Virus record (IMG/VR): IMGVR_UViG_3300044475_000054
Span: 1-64,000 of that record
DNA from: a virus
Lineage: Duplodnaviria > Heunggongvirae > Uroviricota > Caudoviricetes
DNA: 64,000 nucleotides
Reading direction: 5' to 3' (one strand)
The notes under the pieces are model-generated. The model was not told the DNA's origin, made no database searches, and worked only from the letters and a program-made list of their open reading frames with translations. Within the stretch, counting starts at the first letter, position 1. Each line of letters begins with the position of its first letter. The translations under genes and the position numbers were made by a program. Below are positions 3,046 to 39,916 of this stretch, in pieces.

Positions 3046-3143
3046 TTTAAAATAATCTGATATTCGTATTGCAATTTGAGAATGTTTGTTATATTCTTTG
3101 TTTATCGAAACAAATGTTGTAATACGAATTAAGGAGATATAAA

Positions 3144-3341
3144 ATGAGTAACTTAAAATATGCACCAAATGAGACGGTTATTTTTCTTGAGCGTCAAGGT
3201 TATTGTGGACAAATAGTTGTACACTATTGTTCTGGTGAGGTAGCAAACCGATATGAGAAATTGTCGGACATCCCTGAAAGTTGCGGTGGAATATTTTACC
3301 GAACAAACATATCACAATCTGGAGAATCATTATGTGGATGA
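3144..3341 (+). CDS. hypothetical protein (Cys-rich)
   Basis: RBS aaggagatataaaATG. Confidence 0.5.
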   Translation: MSNLKYAPNETVIFLERQGYCGQIVVHYCSGEVANRYEKLSDIPESCGGIFYRTNISQSGESLCG

Positions 3342-3511
3342 AGATTAACAGTAACTTAACAAACATTGAACATGATAAGTGGTATAAAACTTCTATGTTT
3401 CATAATGATGAATACCAAACTGTTCAAGTTATGAAGTTTTATCGTGGTTTGTGGTGGACATCGGATGATGTATACACATATTATGCACCTTCACATATTT
3501 GGAAAGATTAG
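3332..3511 (+). CDS. hypothetical protein (start moved to ATG 3332 from the track ORF 3281)
   Basis: In-frame ATG preceded by ggaga, and it abuts the upstream gene. Confidence 0.4.
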   Translation: MWMKINSNLTNIEHDKWYKTSMFHNDEYQTVQVMKFYRGLWWTSDDVYTYYAPSHIWKD

Positions 3512-3520
3512 GAGAGAGCG

Positions 3521-3703: not shown

Positions 3704-4139
3704 TATGGGTAACAACTTAACATTACAACAAATGGAATCTTTAGACATTGGAAAATGGATGTCAGATGTTGAGAAAGAAAAAGCAATTGCTAAAGCTTTA
3801 GAACTGCAAGCTGTGTGCTTAGAAACTTCTAATGAGGTTTTAAAGAAAAAGACTCTTGAAGAAACACTACGAGATGGTGGTCTATTTACTTATACACTTG
3901 GAAAGAAGAAGTACAAGTTGAATGTACTAACCAAAGCCGATCTTGCTTTGTTGGATAACATCGAGAATGATATTGAAGCTGGAATTGAGTATGATATTGT
4001 TAAACCTTTTCGCTACCATGTGTTGACAGCGTTAGATACATATCTTACAATCAAAGCTCAAACATACACAGAAGCACAATCCGTAGTTGATTCAATACTG
4101 GGTGTTGGTCGTTATAGCGTCAGTGCTTCAAATCTTTAA
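3696..4139 (+). CDS. hypothetical protein
   Basis: 147-aa ORF overlapping the previous stop. Confidence 0.5.
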   Translation: MYNMGNNLTLQQMESLDIGKWMSDVEKEKAIAKALELQAVCLETSNEVLKKKTLEETLRDGGLFTYTLGKKKYKLNVLTKADLALLDNIENDIEAGIEYDIVKPFRYHVLTALDTYLTIKAQTYTEAQSVVDSILGVGRYSVSASNL

Positions 4140-4153
4140 TTAAGGAGAAACAA

Positions 4154-4642
4154 ATGAGTAGTTCAGTAACAAGTAAATTTAAGAAAGGTGACAAGGTGAT
4201 TCGTGTAGGTAACACATCAGCGATTGGTGTTGAGTTTGGTGAAGTATACACGGTAAACAATCCAAGTAGTCATAGTGGTCGTTACGAGGGTGAATTACAT
4301 AATCACGTAACATTAGTAGAAGTCAAAAGTACACCTAGTGACAAATACCTTGAGTTATATGTTGAACAACGTAATTATCGTGAAATGAGTCAAAACGATT
4401 TAATTACAATCTCAATTAATGGTGTTGAATCGGAAGTACCTCTTGGTGATATTATCCATGCTGTAGCTATTCTTGGTGTTACGAACGGTTATCATGGTGC
4501 TCGTATTTGGGAAGCTTTACGCAAACCTTTTGACCACGAAGGTTTTGTACAAGATATGGACACAGTAGTTGAGTTTAGAGATAAACAGAAAGAAGCTCTT
4601 GATTATTTCTTTAAACCTTATTATGATAAGCAACAGAAATAG
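4154..4642 (+). CDS. hypothetical protein
   Basis: RBS taaggagaaacaaATG. 162 aa. Confidence 0.55.
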   Translation: MSSSVTSKFKKGDKVIRVGNTSAIGVEFGEVYTVNNPSSHSGRYEGELHNHVTLVEVKSTPSDKYLELYVEQRNYREMSQNDLITISINGVESEVPLGDIIHAVAILGVTNGYHGARIWEALRKPFDHEGFVQDMDTVVEFRDKQKEALDYFFKPYYDKQQK

Positions 4643-32145: not shown

Positions 32146-32175
32146 TTGACAAGATCGATGGTGTACCCCTATACT
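32146..32175 (+). promoter_or_regulatory. sigma70-like promoter ttgaca-N18-tatact, divergent from the 32028 promoter
   Basis: TTGACA 32146-32151, TATACT 32170-32175. Confidence 0.4.
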
Positions 32176-32179
32176 GCAA

Positions 32180-32460
32180 GGAAGGGGTTAGGGGTTGAGT
32201 TATATATTTATCTAGTTTAAATAATATTACTATATTGAATACATGAGCTATGTATGATTCAAGAGCTTTTATATAATTATATATATATTAATAAATACTA
32301 AATATAATACTTACTATAATACTTATATTAAATACTAATAATATACTTACAGTAAGTATATCTTATGAATACTTAAAGTATTACATACTGTATTAGATAT
32401 ACCTGTATATGATTTAATAAGAATAAATCTTATTTAGATATAATTATATTTATATACTTG
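32180..32460. repeat. AT-rich repeat region with ATACTTA-type motifs and a 19-nt palindrome (32342-32360), related to window positions 1-250
   Basis: tatacttac-a-gtaagtata palindrome. Motifs aatacttacagta and gtattacat/ttagatata are shared with 40-105 of the window. Confidence 0.4.
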
Positions 32461-32680
32461 TGTTTGGTGTTGTTCTTGTTTGGTGCTAAGAGCGAAGCGA
32501 TAGGTTTGTCATGTTGGTGTTCTAGGTGTTACCTGATTGAGTTAAACACAATAAACCTAATCTTTTGTTGTTTCTTACTAATTTGGTGTAATTTGATTGA
32601 ATTTAACCTGATTTGGTGTAAAAAAGATAAAAATATTTGTGTTTTGATTGTTTTGTGTGCTAATTTGTGTGTTCAAGGGG

Positions 32681-32708
32681 TTGACACTAGAGGAACTTAT
32701 GTTAAACT
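32681..32708 (+). promoter_or_regulatory. sigma70-like promoter ttgaca-N16-taaact reading into the ORF-free structured region
   Basis: TTGACA 32681-32686, TAAACT 32703-32708. Preceded by four tttggtgt direct repeats at 32466, 32483, 32584 and 32615. Confidence 0.4.
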
Positions 32709-32759
32709 TACTCTATACCCACAAGAAAACATGCATTACTTTTTGTGTTGGTTAAGGCG

Positions 32760-33600
32760 GTAGATCGAAGTTCTCCTAACTTCCTTACTATCTGTGGAGA
32801 GTCAACTCCACACTATGAGAGCTTTGGTAAGCACAGATAAGTTAGAGAGTTCGATTCTTCTAAGCGTGAAATACGTTATCGTGGTGAATACGTAATGTGT
32901 GAGTAGGTTCAAATCCTACAGCTCTCCACCAAATATCTCCTATGTCGCTACTCGTTCGTATTAAAGTTCATCTCCTTACTTTGATATGATTGCTAGGTAG
33001 TCCGCATAATCGTAAGCGGAACTAATTTAAATTGAATGGAGTAAGATTATGAAAGATGGTTATGGTTTAGGTAGCGAAGGCTACGGGCTAGGTTGAGTCA
33101 AAATTATGCGGAAACCAAGATGGTGTAGTGAAGTAAACGACTAGTTAAGTTTATGAATCGAGAGTCAGAGCATATCTGATAATTCCGCTCCAAATTAAAC
33201 AACACCAAACAAGCCTAGAATGATGGATTCCATTGTGCTGTATCGGGATGTTAATAAACATGACTTCGGTAGATGCTCAAACTGTTTGGTTGCTTATGGT
33301 GTTATGACCTTCCACCGTACACAAAGGTCGCTTATTTTAGATATATTTGATGAAAACCAGTAACACATAGTTACTAAGGTATTTCAAGTATTCAAAACGG
33401 TGTTGGATGTTGAATGAGCTTCAAATCCCTCAAGACTAATCTGTGAAGTTAGTCAATTTTATTGAGAAGTAATTGGTCAAGAGTATCCTTTCAGTTGTTT
33501 AAAGACTCACCCATGCGCGTGTTAGTTTAGATTGTCTGTGTAACTATTTGCAATGTCGTTACAGATTACTTCATCAATAAAATTATAATAACAAATTAGG
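32760..33600 (+). ncRNA. candidate large structured noncoding RNA (~850 nt, ORF-free, GC-enriched relative to flanks) containing a tRNA-like T-arm (32903-32927)
   Basis: No ORF over 60 aa on either strand. Many local and long-range complementarities: gtggag/ctccac at 32794-32811; tatctgtg/cacagata at 32789/32832; ccgcataat/attatgcgg at 33002/33102; gcggaa/ttccgc at 33017/33184; gtagc-gaagg-gctac at 33071-33086; gactaa...ttagtc at 33443-33466. The T-arm reads gtagg-TTCAAAT-cctac then agctctcc-acca. A strong promoter lies upstream. Confidence 0.3.
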
Positions 33601-33611
33601 ATAATAACCAT

Positions 33612-33839
33612 ATGTCAGGACGTTGCCAGTGTTGTAACAGGATTTTACTTCGACCTACAGGAACTCGTACATTAAGTGACGGGACGAAAGTTGAAGAGAC
33701 ATTCTGTAATGTGTGTAGAAACGAAGTTAATCAAATCTTACGAGATACAGAATATAATAAGAATACAAAGTTTGATGGAATTATAGAACAGCAAATGTTT
33801 TATGGTTGTGTTACTCCTCAGAAAAATCCTATCTATTAA
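33612..33839 (+). CDS. zinc-ribbon small protein
   Basis: CQCC...CNVC Cys pairs. RBS attaggataataaccatATG. Confidence 0.45.
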   Translation: MSGRCQCCNRILLRPTGTRTLSDGTKVEETFCNVCRNEVNQILRDTEYNKNTKFDGIIEQQMFYGCVTPQKNPIY

Positions 33840-34193
33840 TTAAAAAGTTTTGTTGGTTGAATCTGCTAGACGCACAGAAGTCGTAGTTATTGCACACTAC
33901 CAACCAACAATTTAGTTTTGCTGTGTAGATGAGAAGGTGTGGTATCCTCTCGTTAAACTAACAAACCTCAAGATGTACTTAGTGAGTGGGTGTACTCGAA
34001 AGCAGAAATGGTTACACCAACACAGCAATTTAGTTTTATTGGATGAAGCGAAACCTAAGTTTTAATGATGAATTATTTTAAATATTTGTTAATATAATTC
34101 TTGTCAGATAAGGTAGCTTCTGAAAGTCGATTAGTCCTCGATTTCTGACATTTACATTCAGGACTAAATTAATGTTTTTGACTAGAGGTTTAA

Positions 34194-35249
34194 ATGAAAA
34201 CACTCAAATTACGCATAAAAGACAAACACGCAAAGGTGCTAAATCAGATGGCTTCTGAGGTTAATTTTGTCTGGAATTATGTGAACGATTTGGGTTTCAA
34301 GCATCTAAAAAGAAAGGGCGAGTTTCTTTCAGCATACGATATTGCCAAGTATACAAAAGGCGCATCAAAAGAATGCAATCTACATAGCCAAACGATTCAG
34401 GCTGTGACCGAAGAATTAGTCATACGAAGAAAACAGTTCAAGAAAGCAAAGTTGAAATGGCGTGTCAGTAATAAAAAATCAGCTAGGCGTTCATTGGGTT
34501 GGATACCGTTCAAAAAGGTTGCAATCAAATATGCTGATGGCTACGTGCAGTATGGCAAGCATCAATTCAAGCTATGGGATAGCTATGGACTATCAAAATA
34601 CAATGTTAGAACAGGCGCATTTGTAGAGGATAGTCGTGGGCGTTGGTATGTGTGTCTTGTTGTGGATTCACCTAAGCAAGATAAACCAAAGGCAACCAAA
34701 GCAATCGGTATTGATCTAGGCTTGAAAGATGTTGCCACCTGTTCTGATGGTACGGTTGTTTCAAATCCTAAGTTCTATCGTAAATATGAGCAGAAATTAG
34801 GGATTGCTCAAAGAGCAAGAAATAAGGAGCGTGTTCGTGCATTACACGCAAAAATTGCCAATAGTCGTAAAGACCATTTGCATAAAGCAAGTACTATGCT
34901 TGTAAAAAATAATGCTATGATTGTTGTAGGTGACTTGAGTGCTAAAAAACTTGTAAAAACTAAAATGGCGAAATCTGTTTTAGATACAGGATTTTCAGCA
35001 CTCAAAACAATGCTCAAGTACAAATGCGAGAACGCAGGAGTATTGTTTGAAGAAGTCAACGAATCATATACCACCCGAACTTGTAATTTTTGTAGTGGAG
35101 ATACTGGACCACGTGGAATTAACGGTCTTGGAATAAGAGAATGGGAGTGTCGTGACTGCGGTACAGTTCATGATAGAGATGTAAACTCAGCTCTTAACAT
35201 TCTTGCGCTCGGGCATGAGCGTCTAGTAGTAGGAATCCCCTTGCTTTAG
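34194..35249 (+). CDS. tnpB: IS200/IS605-family TnpB (OrfB) RNA-guided nuclease homolog, with an apparent Glu-to-Gly change at RuvC-II
   Basis: OrfB_IS605 layout. RuvC-I AIGIDLGLKD. Central MIVVGDLSAKKL where the family has ivvEdL. Zinc finger CNFCSG...CRDCG. RuvC-III HDRDVNSALNIL. RBS tagaggtttaaATG. Confidence 0.8.
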   Translation: MKTLKLRIKDKHAKVLNQMASEVNFVWNYVNDLGFKHLKRKGEFLSAYDIAKYTKGASKECNLHSQTIQAVTEELVIRRKQFKKAKLKWRVSNKKSARRSLGWIPFKKVAIKYADGYVQYGKHQFKLWDSYGLSKYNVRTGAFVEDSRGRWYVCLVVDSPKQDKPKATKAIGIDLGLKDVATCSDGTVVSNPKFYRKYEQKLGIAQRARNKERVRALHAKIANSRKDHLHKASTMLVKNNAMIVVGDLSAKKLVKTKMAKSVLDTGFSALKTMLKYKCENAGVLFEEVNESYTTRTCNFCSGDTGPRGINGLGIREWECRDCGTVHDRDVNSALNILALGHERLVVGIPLL

Positions 35250-35440
35250 ATTGGGGAGGATGTCAAAACAAGAAAATAACAATAAATAACAATTATTAGG
35301 TTGATAACAAGAAAGAAAATAACAATAAATAAGAACTTAGCAATTAAGTTCAATAAATGTGCCTTACGGCATGTTGCGGAGAGGGGAACAGTTATGTGTT
35401 CTCGGTGTTGAGACAGGTTAGCGTGGTCATCAATACAACA
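35250..35440 (+). ncRNA. candidate omegaRNA scaffold / IS right end downstream of tnpB
   Basis: 18-nt direct repeat gaaaataacaataaataa at 35272 and 35315. GC-rich hairpins tgccttacggca and gcggagaggggaacag...ctcggtgttgagacagg, then an AT-rich run before the next gene. Confidence 0.35.
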
Positions 35441-35763: not shown

Positions 35764-37908
35764 ATGATTTCAAATAGTGGAACCACTTCGCTTGGTTTGT
35801 ATGATTTTAAACGTCAGATTGATTCTTTTGGCGGGGTAGATTATTTCCGCCCTAGTCTGGTTGGTGGTTACTTACCTAACGCTCGTGTAATGTTAGCTAA
35901 TGGTGATATTGTCCAGAATAGCACAGATGTTAATTTAACCAATGATCCTAATAGTGATATGACAGGGTGGGAAAACCCCAAAGATAAAATCTTAAATCTT
36001 GATGACTTTAAAACTGGCGCTAACACCGACGCAGATGCTTTCTATGCGATGTTGGCTTACGCTAAAGCAAAAGGTATTAAGTCGCTAAACATTACACGAG
36101 ATATTACGCTTGATCGCAAAATCACAATGACTCAAGATGCTTCGCTGTGGTTAAACTCAATCAATATTGATTTTCACGGGCATAAAGTAAACTGGACAGG
36201 CGTTGGCGCAGATAATCTATCAATAGGTGTTTTTGAAACATTTGGTATTTTGTCGGCAACTACTACTACGGTTACAACAGATTATCCTGAATACACAAGC
36301 GAATTGACCGTTGCGAATGCAGCAGGCTTTGCTGTGGGCGACTGGATTTTGATTGATAGCACATCAGCTTCCAAACCCGACATTTACTTAAACTTTATTG
36401 CAAAAATTGAAGGTATTAGTGGGAATATAATTCAAACCGATACGGTTCGTCGCTTGGCTGTTCGCCCTTCTGTTGCTACCGTGAATATAACAAAGGTAGT
36501 ACCTGTTGATGGGTTTAAAATCACAGGAAACCCCCTTGTTACAGCAACCAATCAAACAGCACGTACCAATGGGATTGGTGCAGTTCAGTATCAATATTGC
36601 GTAAACTCACATGCTTATGTTAAGTCTGAAAAACTATGGTTTAAAACTTTCCGATCGTCTCAGTGTTCACGTTTAACTGTGATTGCGAATGGTGAAAAGC
36701 CTGCGGCAACTGGAGGCGGTGAAGGTTATGTTGTACAGCTTGAATATACAACCCATTCAATCGTTAAGGCGAACGCTGATAATATGCGCCATTGTGTAGA
36801 CCTCACAATGGCGTGGCATAATAATATTATTGATAGTTATGACTTTGAGAGCGCGTCTGCTTCATACGGATGCCATGCTGCATTTGAATACAATAACCAC
36901 TTTTGGCGTTGTGTTTCTATCCGTTCTGCGCAATACGGCTTTCAGGGGGCAGCTTCTACAGGAACTTTTGGGGATACGGTTGATGAGTTGCATCTGCATG
37001 ATTGTCAGGTTCTCGAAAGCACCTTGCAGTGTGTAAGTTTCGCCAATAAGGGGAAAGGGTTGCATGTTAATGGTGGTCGATATGATGGCAAGTCGTATTC
37101 CATCATAACCTCAAATAACGACACTATTATTAATGGCGCAAAACTATATGGTGGCGTTCAAGTCACAAGCTCTGCTGATATGTACACAGGAGGTATTTGT
37201 GAGGTTCGCAATAGTGAGACTGTGATTAAGAGCGGGACTCGTGCTGCTAATATTGTTGCAGATCGTAGTATTAAGTTTGTTGGTGGCTCTGTTAGCGGGT
37301 TAATAGCCGCAGGGTTAAATACAGTAATTGAAACACTCAACACCGAAGTTATTTGTCCATCCAATACAAGTTTGATTGGGAGCTTTAATACTGTTACTTT
37401 AAAAATGAAGGGTGGTAAATTTATCATTCCTAATGGTGCAACAGCAGATCAAACCAACATTTTAAAAGTTGTTGATATGGACGGGGTTGAGTTTGTACAG
37501 ACGGATGTTGCCCGAGGGAACAGCTTGCTTGGCGCTAAGACATCAATCCGAAATTGCACAGGCTCTAGTCGATTTGCTTTTAATGGTTCTAGCGTGTCAG
37601 ATTTGGAGTTAAGAGACAACACTCTATCCGCAGTTACTACAGCACCACTTGTAACGCTTCTAAACTTTACAGGTAAAGTGAAGATAAACAATAATACACT
37701 GTCTGCATCAAATAGCGCTTTTCTTATTGGTACAACCAACACAATCAGTAAACTACAAATGATGGGTAACGACATCACTGGCGCTACAAGCATTCCAGAC
37801 GGCCAAGTCACAAGCGGCATTGTGCAAGGTAATATGTTCGCAGGCACAACAACACTGCCGACAAATGGCGCAAATAAGTTTGTAGATTCAAATATCATTA
37901 CAGCTTAA
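35764..37908 (+). CDS. tailspike / tail fiber protein with predicted right-handed beta-helix (pectate-lyase-like) domain
   Basis: 714 aa. Recurrent Asn/Gly-rich repeats typical of beta-helix depolymerases (ITRDITLDRKITMTQDASLWLNSINIDFHGHKVNWTG, VNGGRYDG, TIINGAKLYGG). RBS ataaggataatataATG. Confidence 0.5.
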   Translation: MISNSGTTSLGLYDFKRQIDSFGGVDYFRPSLVGGYLPNARVMLANGDIVQNSTDVNLTNDPNSDMTGWENPKDKILNLDDFKTGANTDADAFYAMLAYAKAKGIKSLNITRDITLDRKITMTQDASLWLNSINIDFHGHKVNWTGVGADNLSIGVFETFGILSATTTTVTTDYPEYTSELTVANAAGFAVGDWILIDSTSASKPDIYLNFIAKIEGISGNIIQTDTVRRLAVRPSVATVNITKVVPVDGFKITGNPLVTATNQTARTNGIGAVQYQYCVNSHAYVKSEKLWFKTFRSSQCSRLTVIANGEKPAATGGGEGYVVQLEYTTHSIVKANADNMRHCVDLTMAWHNNIIDSYDFESASASYGCHAAFEYNNHFWRCVSIRSAQYGFQGAASTGTFGDTVDELHLHDCQVLESTLQCVSFANKGKGLHVNGGRYDGKSYSIITSNNDTIINGAKLYGGVQVTSSADMYTGGICEVRNSETVIKSGTRAANIVADRSIKFVGGSVSGLIAAGLNTVIETLNTEVICPSNTSLIGSFNTVTLKMKGGKFIIPNGATADQTNILKVVDMDGVEFVQTDVARGNSLLGAKTSIRNCTGSSRFAFNGSSVSDLELRDNTLSAVTTAPLVTLLNFTGKVKINNNTLSASNSAFLIGTTNTISKLQMMGNDITGATSIPDGQVTSGIVQGNMFAGTTTLPTNGANKFVDSNIITA

Positions 37909-38482: not shown

Positions 38483-39916
38483 ATGCAAGAAGAAAAACAA
38501 AGAGATGTAATTGCTCCTGCCAGTAAACCACAAGAGTTATTCATTAACTCTGATGCTGATATTACTATTGCAAGTGGTAGTGCTGGTAGTAGTAAATCAT
38601 ATTCTATTTTATTACGTTGGTTACGGTTTATTAATTGTCCTTATTCAAGGGGCGTAATCTTCCGTAGAACGTCTACTCAGCTATTGCAACAAGGTGGTCT
38701 CTGGGATGATGCTATTTCGTTATATAGTAGGATTGACCCTAACTTAAAGATTAAGATTAAAGATCGTAAACTAATCTTCTCTACAGGAGCTTCTTTACAG
38801 TTTTCTCACTACGAGAACGAAGCAGCTAAAGAGAAGTTCAAAGGTTTACAAGCTGATTATATTGCTTTCGATGAAGCAACAGAATTTACAGAAGAGATGA
38901 TTACGTATCTCTTATCTCGTAACCGTAACTCAGGTGTTGTTGGTTATCATAAATCAACTATGTGCATGGCTACAAACCCACACTGTGATTCTTTCTTGAA
39001 AGATTGGATATGGTGGTGGTTAGACCCTGATACAGGTATTCCTGATCCTGAGAAGCGTGGAGTAACACGCTACTTCGTTAAACTACGTGATGGTGGTTTT
39101 GATTGGTATGATTCAAGAGAAGAAGCAGAAGTAGTTTATGGGACAGCTAAAGATAACGGTGTTAAGTCGATGTGTGTTATTGGTAGTACGATCTACGATA
39201 ACCCTTACATTGACCCAGCATACATCTCAAGCTTAAAAGCACTATCTCGTGTAGAGCAAGATCGATTACTATTTGGTAGTTGGACAGCTCGTGAAGAATC
39301 TTCAGGATACTTTAAACAAGAGTGGTTAAACAAACCATTAATTATGCCTCCTGCATCTATTATTAAAGTACGTGCTTGGGACTTAGCTGCAACCAAACCA
39401 AGTGAATCTAACAAGAACCCTGACTGGACTGCTGGTGTACTTATGTCGAAAGACAAAGAAAAGATGTACACAATTGAGCACGTAAGTAGATTTCGTGATG
39501 GTTTTAGGGGTGTAGAGAAGAAGATCATTGAACAAGCAGAAGAAGATGGTAGAGACGTTATTATTCTGCTTCCTATGGATGTAGGTTCATCTGCTCAGAG
39601 TTATGCTAAAGGGTTTCAAGGTGAATTAGCTGATTTAGGATTCACTGTTAAATTAATTAAACCTAAAGTAGACAAGGTAACACGTTTCGGGCCTTTCGCA
39701 GCAATCGCTGAAGCACAGAAAGTTCGTTATGTTGAAGGCGCTTGGAACAAACCTTACTTCGATGAACTAGAATCTTTTGATGGCAGTCGAAGAACCAAAA
39801 GGGATCAAGTCGATGCAACTTCTGATGCGTATAACTATCTACGAGTTAGTTTAGTATTACCTTCAATCAGTCTTACATCATTTACACAATCTAACCCATT
39901 CTCAAGAGATTTTTAA
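38483..39916 (+). CDS. terL: terminase large subunit
   Basis: Walker A ITIASGSAGSSKS, Walker B YIAFDEATEF, and C-terminal nuclease-like acidic motifs (LPMDVGSS, DQVDATSDAY). Confidence 0.8.
   Translation: MQEEKQRDVIAPASKPQELFINSDADITIASGSAGSSKSYSILLRWLRFINCPYSRGVIFRRTSTQLLQQGGLWDDAISLYSRIDPNLKIKIKDRKLIFSTGASLQFSHYENEAAKEKFKGLQADYIAFDEATEFTEEMITYLLSRNRNSGVVGYHKSTMCMATNPHCDSFLKDWIWWWLDPDTGIPDPEKRGVTRYFVKLRDGGFDWYDSREEAEVVYGTAKDNGVKSMCVIGSTIYDNPYIDPAYISSLKALSRVEQDRLLFGSWTAREESSGYFKQEWLNKPLIMPPASIIKVRAWDLAATKPSESNKNPDWTAGVLMSKDKEKMYTIEHVSRFRDGFRGVEKKIIEQAEEDGRDVIILLPMDVGSSAQSYAKGFQGELADLGFTVKLIKPKVDKVTRFGPFAAIAEAQKVRYVEGAWNKPYFDELESFDGSRRTKRDQVDATSDAYNYLRVSLVLPSISLTSFTQSNPFSRDF

Follow-up and report, generated by a model that had tools for sequence, protein, structure and literature searches.

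What does a phage keep in some 900 nucleotides (nt) that hold no gene? The question is raised by positions 32,681 to 33,600 of the first 64,000 nt of the IMG/VR virus record IMGVR_UViG_3300044475_000054 (Caudoviricetes), and we refer to this whole 64,000-nt stretch as the window. An initial annotation had proposed a large, highly structured noncoding RNA, read from a promoter and lying next to a TnpB island. That a promoter leads into a noncoding, covarying RNA on the + strand holds; a single large RNA, however, does not, since the structured parts are separable modules that are reordered in related phages. We consider it probable that the region is a phage operon of transfer RNAs (tRNAs) and stable RNAs, from which every canonical tRNA has been lost and in which small, conserved, structured RNAs have been retained. 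At least five non-tRNA modules persist in the window, with base pairs kept through compensatory changes, and covariation in comparison with related phages supports an 85-nt tRNA-like RNA, the leader, hairpin P4, hairpin H and module M6 (Table 1).

The promoter is of the sigma-70 type, with its TTGACA hexamer at 32681-32686 and an extended -10 element, TGtTAAACT, that ends at 32708; a promoter scan gave 10 of 12 consensus matches plus the TG of the extended -10, and transcription would start near 32714-32716. It is kept, as GGTTGACA...TAnAnT, ahead of the same leader in six related loci (L003, L008, L009, L011, L012 and L022). As first reported, there is no credible open reading frame (ORF): none longer than 47 amino acids (aa) was found on either strand within 32764-33611, so that the promoter leads into about 900 noncoding nt, and the first downstream ATG, at 33612, opens a 75-aa ORF. 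A scan for intrinsic terminators between the promoter and this ORF found none. A coding reading was rejected on the length of the longest ORF, on the indels of arbitrary length between homologous blocks and on the position of blocks between tRNAs. A 15-codon ORF, MKDGYGLGSEGYGLG (33049-33096, within 33038-33096), has a GGAG 7 nt 5' of its ATG and lies in a segment found only in the window, just before the tRNA-like RNA; it is without homologue and may be a chance occurrence.

Taken as a whole, the region does not fold better than expected. The minimum free energy of 32710-33600 is no lower than that of shuffled sequences (z = -0.97 on each strand), and the dense complementarity first remarked on was therefore dropped as evidence. 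The complementary pairs that had been listed are all present in the sequence, but several of the long-range ones conflict with helices supported by covariation. The pair gtggag/ctccac (32794-32811) is real and corresponds to the covarying helix P3 of the leader. By contrast, the ttccgc at 33184, previously matched with the gcggaa at 33017, pairs with the gcggaa at 33108 in the acceptor stem of the tRNA-like RNA; the attatgcgg at 33102, matched with the ccgcataat at 33002, holds the 5' acceptor strand of the same RNA; and for tatctgtg/cacagata (32789/32832) the first partner falls in the conserved helices P2a and P3 and the second in a window-only segment. The GC content of 0.35-0.40, said to be higher than that of the flanks, does exceed the 0.19-0.33 of the AT-rich control region upstream, but it is about equal to that of the surrounding coding DNA (~0.31-0.45). 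ARAGORN called no tRNA gene across the 64-kb window, where Rfam gave no match at gathering score; at E ≤ 10, Rfam gave no relevant match in 32300-33900 except a sub-threshold tRNA at 32845-32927. In 12 related loci Rfam at gathering score found the tRNAs of these relatives and nothing else, and at E ≤ 10 L008 and BS46 gave tRNAs or chance-level matches only.

When 32400-33900 was compared with cultured phages by blastn, matches were confined to 33105-33196 and fell in unannotated DNA of the Acinetobacter phages B9, BS46, Ab5, Ab7, phiAB441, Phab24 and MD-2021a. The matching DNA lies in the same syntenic gap, with the PhoH/ClpP block on one side and the lysin/terminase block on the other. Nucleotide identity between the window and these phages is 76-85% (79% with B9), while the large terminase (TerL) and PhoH proteins of the window and B9 are 37% and 18% identical in amino-acid sequence. 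A pattern built from this block recovered L003 and L008-L016 among metagenomic and IMG/VR sequences, and L022 was recovered independently, by look-up of the exact 75-aa protein; the comparison set consists of 12 metagenomic or viral relatives and 10 Acinetobacter phages, in which L001 is B9, L002 is BS46 and L006 is MD-2021a.

The block holds the 85-nt tRNA-like RNA. Its acceptor stem comprises 6 bp (GCGGAA/UUCCGC) plus an A-A apposition and is followed by U73-CCA, encoded in the DNA; besides the acceptor stem there are a D-like hairpin of 3 bp, an elongated arm, and a T arm with a 5-bp stem and a loop of 7 nt. The elongated arm has about 13 layers, among them an internal loop, UGAA/GAAU, that is invariant and is closed by a G-C/U-A pair that covaries; at the tip of the arm is a 10-nt apical loop, G-ACUAGU-UAA, the palindrome of which occupies 33140-33145. 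Nineteen sequence variants are known, from three phage clades, and 18 distinct sequences align without gaps. In this alignment standard pairs are formed in 95.3% of cells, a share that falls to 35-46% if the 3' partners are slid; 11 pairs are altered on both sides, and the observed covariation score was reached by no shuffle. The G-U pairs 27-48 (18 of 18 sequences) and 58-74 (14 of 18) are conserved and thereby fix the + strand. Our covariance model of this RNA, R1, made from the alignment, detects a single copy in each locus; the window copy scores 107.9 bits, and that of L022, which took no part in building the model, 99.9 bits. The exception is phage MD-2021a, with two paralogous tRNA-like RNAs, a B9-type and a BS46-type copy, at 2503-2589 and 3130-3216.

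The ends of the RNA are of the tRNA type. U is found at position -1 in all 18 sequences, G1-C72 and U73-CCA are invariant or nearly so, and the U-CCA 3' end is universal, with a single acceptor-strand substitution in each of L015 and Ab3. In bacteria U(-1), G1-C72, stacked acceptor and T helices and NCCA are the determinants by which RNase P recognises a substrate. By its sequence, GCGGA...UCCGC-U-CCA, the acceptor end belongs to the tRNA-Gly type; phage Mithridates carries a tRNA-Gly(UCC) that ends in GCG.../...CGC-U-CCA and whose D region, GUGUAGUGGUAAC, resembles GUGUAGUGAAGUAAAC of the tRNA-like RNA, so that descent from tRNA-Gly is plausible but not proven. The RNA itself is predicted to be non-decoding: it has neither a 5-bp anticodon stem with a 7-nt loop nor a U33 context, and its loop varies as a palindrome and not as an anticodon. 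The CUA or UUA triplets in the loop led us to consider a suppressor tRNA, which was rejected given the absence of U33, the 10-nt loop, and the long ordinary ORFs in the standard code, which argue against recoding. Rfam at E ≤ 10 on 33100-33200 gave no tRNA and no known tRNA-like family. A looser tRNA-like pattern found no new loci in IMG/VR, and two scans of bacterial and archaeal genomes gave no match and then one match that the covariance model rejects; the RNA seems to be confined to virulent phages. Literature searches returned no description of elements of the locus (an apparent match to B9 in a paper on sweat vesicles was irrelevant), and with no Rfam family matching it the RNA appears to be undescribed.

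The apical loop carries a further signal. Within the frame G-NNNNNN-UAA the hexamer is ACUAGU in 13 of the 19 variants, CUUAAG in three (L013, L015 and L022) and CUAUAG in one (phiAB441), each of them a perfect palindrome in the same register. Changes on both sides are seen at all three symmetric positions (1/6, 2/5 and 3/4), with complementarity in 98% of cells. Within one molecule, six adjacent bases cannot pair with one another, and pairing between two copies is therefore the simplest reading. We regard a kissing-loop dimer of the dimerization initiation site (DIS) type as a serious possibility, if somewhat short of an even chance; as only four hexamer types are available, the evidence from the palindrome is suggestive and not conclusive.

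In the relatives these modules stand among tRNA genes. L011 has five tRNAs (tRNA-Pro, Leu, Arg, Ser and Ser) after the same promoter and leader, L003, L009 and L022 have tRNA-Arg(UCU) in the same unit, BS46 has tRNA-Tyr and Leu, and the arrays of AM24, Mithridates and Bestia, of at least 15 tRNAs each, include the unannotated tRNA-like RNA between tRNA-Tyr and tRNA-Ile. The CCA ends of the tRNAs of these relatives are encoded in the DNA, and in L003, L011 and L022 the tRNA-like RNA is immediately 3' of tRNA-Arg or tRNA-Ser. In the window, B9, phiAB441 and L008 all true tRNAs of the locus are gone, yet the tRNA-like RNA has been kept. The order of the modules differs, with M6 ahead of the tRNA-like RNA in L013 and L015 and hairpin H directly ahead of it in the BS46 and AM24 types, and so do the downstream genes: in Acinetobacter phages hairpin H and the tRNA-like RNA precede the endolysin gene, and in L013 and L015 the tRNA-like RNA precedes a spanin-like gene. 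As modules are reordered and tRNAs or HNH ORFs stand between them, it is evidently the module, of 25-125 nt, and not the 0.9-kb region, that is the unit of conservation.

Table 1. Features of the RNA region, with their positions in the window unless a related locus is named.
Feature	Position	Strand	Basis
Sigma-70-type promoter, TTGACA / 16-nt spacer / TGtTAAACT extended -10	32681..32708	+	promoter scan
Leader hairpins P2a/P2 (32759-32792) and P3 GUGGAG/CUCCAC (32793-32812)	32759..32812	+	RNAalifold
Second tRNA-shaped element	32845..32931	+	sub-threshold Rfam tRNA match, fold
Hairpin P4, 10-nt loop UCAUCUCCUU at 32968-32977	32956..32989	+	covariation in 7 homologues
Hairpin P5, loop AUAAUCGUAA	32998..33024	+	read by eye, no formal count
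tRNA-like RNA, 85 nt	33108..33192	+	covariation, covariance model R1
Module M6	33205..33289	+	RNAalifold, 5 homologues
Hairpin M7, GACCUU-N12-AAGGUC	33306..33329	+	sequence identity
Window-only structured segment, three hairpins including GACUAA-N9-UUAGUC	33340..33456	+	fold z = -2.78
Long hairpin H	33457..33582	+	arms-only alignment, 10 homologues
Module X (related loci)	L002 (BS46) 3815-4003; L008 455-196 (-); L003 3010-2773 (-); L010 5915-5617 (-); L020 2285-2487		
Block UUUCACCCAUGAUCAGAUUACGGUGGGUA...CUACCAUGUAAGCGAAUG (related loci)	L001 (B9) 4096-4166; L002 (BS46) 3442-3512; L020 ~1323-1395; L013 ~190-265; L015 ~14645-14570 (-)		

The same observations could be taken as those of a decaying tRNA array, a wreck eroded by homing endonucleases and insertion sequences, in which the remaining pieces are spacers or processing signals and the tRNA-like RNA is a functionless tRNA-Gly pseudogene. 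The canonical tRNAs are indeed all missing, some copies of the tRNA-like RNA have stem mismatches, and the window is a mosaic: the blocks 32300-32815, 32919-33023, 33106-33220, 33263-33339 and 33456-33840 are held in common with relatives (32919-33023 is 93% identical to L009 and L012, and 33456-33838 is 98% identical to L022), and the segments 32816-32918, 33024-33105/33106 and 33340-33455/33456 match none of the related loci compared. Insertions are found in and next to the locus, including the TnpB gene of the window and free-standing HNH homing-endonuclease genes inside the arrays of L009 and L010. Homing-endonuclease genes of the HNH or AP2 type were located at varying insertion points, in L009 at 648-1180, in L010 at ~7031-6470 (-) and in L003 at 2680-1925 (-), and the insertion in L010 has deleted the 5' half of tRNA-Arg; such insertion is likely to be the driver of the mosaicism of the locus. 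The second tRNA-shaped element (32845-32931) may be a relic. Its acceptor stem is of 7 bp, the anticodon arm is replaced by a long arm of 12 bp, and a canonical T arm (GGUUCAAAUCC) is followed by C-ACCA; the T arm with its acceptor-like tail, GTAGG-TTCAAAT-CCTAC at 32903-32930, had been rightly picked out in the initial annotation. The Rfam tRNA model gives 32845-32927 17.9 bits, against a gathering score of 29, and ARAGORN makes no call; the fold has z = -2.35 and follows the same plan as the conserved tRNA-like RNA. The element lies within the window-only insertion 32816-32918, which L009 and L012 lack and which has CTCCAC as a direct repeat at its flanks. The element had no homologue in IMG/VR and may be either a decayed pseudo-tRNA or a second tRNA-like mimic.

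For the conserved RNA, however, decay does not fit what is seen. A pseudogene would not hold 76-85% identity across phages whose TerL proteins are at 37%, nor would it retain 95% of its pairs through 11 compensatory changes together with an invariant internal loop. The tRNA-like RNA also persists precisely where every true tRNA has been lost, and in P4 an invariant loop is carried on a varying stem, as expected of a functional loop and not of a spacer. We therefore consider decay of the whole locus unlikely, though the degenerate tRNA cluster that had been offered as an alternative came closest to the truth: the locus is that of a tRNA array, but the modules that survive in it are under selection and are not debris.

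The leader and P4 share a second conserved motif. In the P2 hairpin the loop UCUCCU(A), at 32771-32777, is invariant in seven homologues, and RNAalifold on the seven homologous leaders gave 17 pairs, 7 of them with compensatory changes; several conserved G-U pairs lie in P2a, and the local fold has z = -2.87. In the P4 stem all 7 pairs covary, with 91.8% of cells paired against 45-57% when slid (7 homologues), while the loop, U(C/U)AUCUCCUU, is unchanged across these homologues, a pattern that marks a functional loop; locally the fold reaches z = -4.64. UCUCCU occurs a third time, unpaired, at 32936-32941. TCTCCT is the reverse complement of AGGAGA, the Shine-Dalgarno motif that this phage over-uses (68 sites against 24.6 expected, nearly all of the TCTCCT occurrences being antisense to genes), and in the RNA region all three UCUCCU copies read in the same sense as the transcript. 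Against the 3' tail of 16S rRNA, which we take to be UCACCUCCUUA, the P4 loop with its closing base, UCAUCUCCUUA, matches at 10 of 11 positions and differs at one. The loops of P4 and the leader may accordingly be described as a putative anti-Shine-Dalgarno mimic. A specific mRNA target of the P4 loop was sought and rejected: its complement, AAGGAGAURA, matches ribosome-binding sites genome-wide and no particular gene. By eye, in the window, L003, L008, L011 and L022, the P5 hairpin likewise shows a 10-nt loop, AUAAUC(G/C)UAA, on different stems, the relatives having AUAAUCCUAA on GCUAG/CUAGC.

Near the downstream gene lies hairpin H, in which a conserved G/CA internal loop divides a lower stem of 9 bp from an upper stem of 7 bp and the apex varies. 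Among its 10 homologues, from the window, BS46 and AM24 types, 99.4% of cells are paired, against 32-51% when slid, 8 pairs have changed on both sides, and several G-U pairs are conserved. Phage RNase III sites have a similar build of stem, internal loop and stem. Within the apex (~33505-33530; L002 ~3735-3765) we observed a small hairpin with a conserved loop, CCAUGCGC, on unrelated stems, ACUCAC/GUG..AGU in the window and AAUAAUC/GAUUAUU in BS46 and Ab3.

These modules invite another explanation, namely that the whole 0.9 kb is a long structured 5' leader acting in cis on the 75-aa ORF, the terminase and the structural genes, with the anti-Shine-Dalgarno loops masking ribosome-binding sites and hairpin H serving as an RNase III or stability element. 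No intrinsic terminator precedes the ORF at 33612, hairpin H ends about 30 nt 5' of the start of the downstream ORF in the window, L008, L010 and L022, and the UCUCCU loops are complementary to AGGAGA-type sites. On the other hand, the modules occur in other orders and ahead of other genes (endolysin, or the spanin-like gene in L013 and L015), as well as in the middle of large tRNA arrays; the encoded CCA and the invariant U(-1) point to excision as a separate RNA; and the complement of the P4 loop fits ribosome-binding sites in general and no single nearby gene. A cis-acting leader thus seems to us improbable, more so than decay.

The remaining modules are conserved to different degrees. M6 is closed by an 8-bp helix, CCAAACA/UGUUUGG (33205-33211 with 33283-33289) including one flanking A-U, followed by AGC/GCU and CUA/UAG; among its 14 basal pairs there is one compensatory change and one wobble change. 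The length of the apex varies widely: it is 5 nt (UACUU) in L003 and about 75 nt in L008 and in the window, where it includes AUGAUGG-AUU-CCAUUGU, and when the window, L022 and L013 are compared by eye, covariation is seen in the inner hairpin; the fold of M6 alone is unremarkable (z = -0.74). Around hairpin M7, identity is 100% with L003 over 33290-33329 and with L014 and L016 over 33298-33329, and 93-98% with L011 and L023; the copies offer no sequence variation by which pairs could be tested, and z is -0.13. The structured segment that follows in the window (33340-33456) takes the place of module X, an unrelated and unannotated sequence of ~140 nt (containing CACGUACUGA...CCAUAACGUGAUUGGA...UAGGUAAG) that stands directly 5' of hairpin H in L008, L003, L010 and BS46. 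Module X is ~84% identical between Acinetobacter phages and uncultured relatives and matches no Rfam family. A further conserved noncoding block, UUUCACCCAUGAUCAGAUUACGGUGGGUA...CUACCAUGUAAGCGAAUG, is common to B9, BS46 and Ab3 (93% identity between B9 and BS46), is found in a diverged form in L013 and L015, and is absent from the window.

Could the palindromes and hairpins be elements of the DNA and not of an RNA, such as protein-binding or cruciform sites of an origin or regulatory region? The region does adjoin a divergent control region, and the loop hexamers are DNA palindromes as well. The control region (32146-32680) is ORF-free, of 19-26% GC, with iterated ATACTTA and TTGGTG(T) motifs, and is conserved in L003, L008 and L010; it may be an origin or an early-promoter cluster. 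It contains a second, stronger rightward promoter, TTGACA-18-TATACT, with 11 of 12 matches at 32146-32175, and to its left a leftward promoter at 32056-32028 has an upstream GGGGTTG motif in common with the promoter of the RNA region. However, the opposite strand would have C-A in place of the conserved G-U pairs (27-48, 58-74, and several of H and P2a), the modules are embedded in tRNA arrays and have tRNA-type ends, and palindromy that is kept despite sequence change fits base pairing better than a sequence-specific protein site, which makes an explanation at the DNA level very unlikely. As for one large ornate RNA of the GOLLD or ROOL kind, or a group I or II intron or other ribozyme, at ~32710-33600, its length, lack of ORFs, promoter, phage setting, several structured modules and tRNA-like pieces such as GOLLD loci often have would suit it, but it is already contradicted and retains next to no probability, as neither at gathering score nor at E ≤ 10 did Rfam match GOLLD, ROOL, HEARO or introns, the region as a whole does not fold better than shuffled sequences, no long-range helix is conserved, and the modules are shuffled, deleted or split by tRNAs and protein genes in relatives.

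The genome around the region is that of a myovirus of ~90-100 kb, a distant relative of the Acinetobacter phages B9, BS46 and AM24 and of Pseudomonas phages of the PAK_P1/Otagovirus type. Its TerL is at most 49% identical to that of any cultured phage, the nearest being Limnohabitans, Pseudomonas and Acinetobacter myoviruses of 76-102 kb, and megablast of 20 kb against cultured phages found no relative at the nucleotide level. To the left of the region lie leftward genes for a Clp-type protease and PhoH, and to the right the 75-aa ORF, which is a zinc-ribbon ORF, the TnpB gene (34194-35249), a 714-aa ORF, the large terminase gene (38483-39916) and structural genes. The 714-aa ORF (35764-37908), upstream of the true large terminase gene, has no Pfam match, and an IMG/VR pattern search in which it served as the terminase anchor found no relatives. 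The association with a TnpB island is coincidental, because in L022, where TnpB is missing, the 75-aa ORF and the RNA region, at 76-98% identity, are both present: between the 75-aa and 83-aa ORFs of L022 there are ~150 nt, against an insertion of ~1.4 kb in the window (33839-35288). Most relatives are likewise without TnpB, and the insertion looks like a recent event of the IS200/IS605 type, the ends of which could be placed precisely by the comparison with L022. Among ten other proteins of the window, which include ThyX, dUTPase, dCMP deaminase, an SPFH-domain protein and a cell-wall hydrolase, there was no RNA-handling enzyme. In a Logan assembly (SRR35899580) two contigs, L021 and L024, are 100% identical to the window and end at 32295 and 33538; the break of the assembly across the RNA region is consistent with population heterogeneity or mosaic variants of the locus.

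Returning to the operon of retained small RNAs, we hypothesize that host RNA polymerase transcribes rightward through the string of modules and that the primary transcript is cut up like a pre-tRNA, by the tRNA-processing machinery. RNase P would cleave after the invariant U(-1), at 33107/33108, and probably also at 32844/32845; the encoded CCA ends would need no addition, and hairpin H would be a site of cleavage or stabilisation that sets the RNA modules apart from the mRNA downstream. As main product we expect the 85-nt non-decoding RNA, derived from an acceptor/T-arm minihelix of the tRNA-Gly type with a long rigid arm. Most likely it would act as a tRNA mimic, its acceptor end being seen by tRNA-handling factors and its palindromic loop pairing with a second copy. 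Possible targets are host tRNA-directed enzymes or defence toxins, which could be titrated or diverted; a tRNA-directed defence toxin, GlyRS, RNase P and the CCA enzyme are candidates. The UCUCCU hairpins of the leader and P4 would belong to a small RNA of their own, or to a distinct RNA domain, with either of two roles: binding to Shine-Dalgarno sequences, or acting as a decoy for a factor that is specific for the 16S 3' tail.

Several points weigh against this proposal. Transcript ends, cleavage by RNase P and RNase III, dimerisation and function are all deduced from sequence. The apparent ubiquity of the tRNA-like core is partly circular, the relatives having mostly been found through that core, with L022 the sole independent recovery, and for the three window-only segments nothing can be claimed beyond predicted folds. 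Copies in L015, AM24, Bestia and Ab3 have single mismatches in their acceptor or T stems. The T loop is AGCAUAU in window-type copies, without the UUC of real tRNAs; only the Acinetobacter copies (UUAGAAU, UUUGAAU) come close to the canonical sequence. In the L014/L016 lineage the hexamer is AAUAGU, which breaks the palindrome, and an AU-rich kissing helix of 6 bp would be weak on its own. Finally, the resemblances to GlyRS identity and to the 16S tail refer to the E. coli sequences and did not come from a tool. The full combination is consequently a tentative one: that the 85-nt RNA founds a phage class of non-decoding tRNA mimics, with a Gly-type acceptor and a homodimeric rod bearing an elbow and a CCA at each tip, kept after the loss of the tRNAs so as to engage a host tRNA-binding factor, and that beside it stands a second small RNA with three anti-Shine-Dalgarno copies, is in our judgement possible but rather doubtful.

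Among known systems the closest analogues are RNAC and RNAD of phage T4, which have tRNA-like 3' parts and are matured by tRNA-processing enzymes, as we propose for the 85-nt RNA. Like these, the 85-nt RNA is a small non-tRNA RNA within, and co-oriented with, a phage tRNA array; unlike them, it has a four-arm, cloverleaf-like plan with an elongated arm and a palindromic loop, and it is found in Acinetobacter myoviruses and uncultured relatives, where it outlasts the tRNAs themselves. Homology is not expected, and the likeness would be functional only. RNAC and RNAD are small RNAs from the T4 tRNA region for which no role is known (PMC3014915; PMC9697503). With other phage tRNA arrays (AM24, Mithridates and Bestia, or the T5 and Felix O1 type), into which homing endonucleases have often made their way, the locus shares a promoter-driven polycistronic layout, encoded CCA ends and HNH genes between RNA genes, but the window has no gene that passes the ARAGORN or Rfam tRNA threshold and holds non-decoding modules only. 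GOLLD and ROOL, to which the region had been likened, also occur in phages, are noncoding and often lie near tRNA genes, but no covariance model matches and no large architecture is conserved. Likewise, HEARO or omega RNA finds no Rfam match and the RNA region is independent of the TnpB element, and an intron-like ribozyme, also suggested at the outset, has no group I or II Rfam match in the window or the related loci and no split gene flanking the region.

HIV subtypes carry different DIS palindromes. The loop of the tRNA-like RNA resembles the DIS of HIV-1 (human immunodeficiency virus type 1) in having a 6-nt self-complementary sequence flanked by unpaired, mostly purine bases (G-NNNNNN-UAA) and in the differences of its palindrome between lineages. 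It differs in the AU-rich composition of the phage palindromes and in its setting, since the hairpin here forms the long arm of a tRNA-like RNA and does not belong to a viral genome leader; the phage dimer itself is a prediction from sequence. RNA dimers formed through palindromic loops have been reviewed (PMC7357161). Some tRNA-shaped RNAs have no part in translation and act by being recognised by factors that bind tRNA, as we propose for the 85-nt RNA; tRNA-Other and the tRNA-like domain of the bacterial Y RNAs known as YrlA are examples. There is no homology with either, and the Rfam models of known tRNA-like families gave no match. We know of no counterpart to the elongated arm with a palindromic loop. 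The tRNA-Other of Bacillus cereus is a non-decoding tRNA-like RNA (PMC3399842).

Phage tRNA regions are usually annotated only for what tRNA finders report, while here the parts between the tRNAs are the most conserved DNA among phages with 18-37% protein identity. The locus adds at least three unannotated RNA families that can be searched for: the tRNA-like RNA, hairpin H and the hairpins with anti-Shine-Dalgarno loops. It also offers a tractable system for an old question, the role of the non-tRNA RNAs in phage tRNA clusters, for which RNAC and RNAD of T4 have stood without a role for decades. The palindromic loop is a prediction open to mutation and, if true, would provide a small natural RNA homodimer on a tRNA scaffold. 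Since the Acinetobacter baumannii phages that carry these RNAs are candidates for phage therapy, unannotated functional RNAs in their genomes matter in practice as well.

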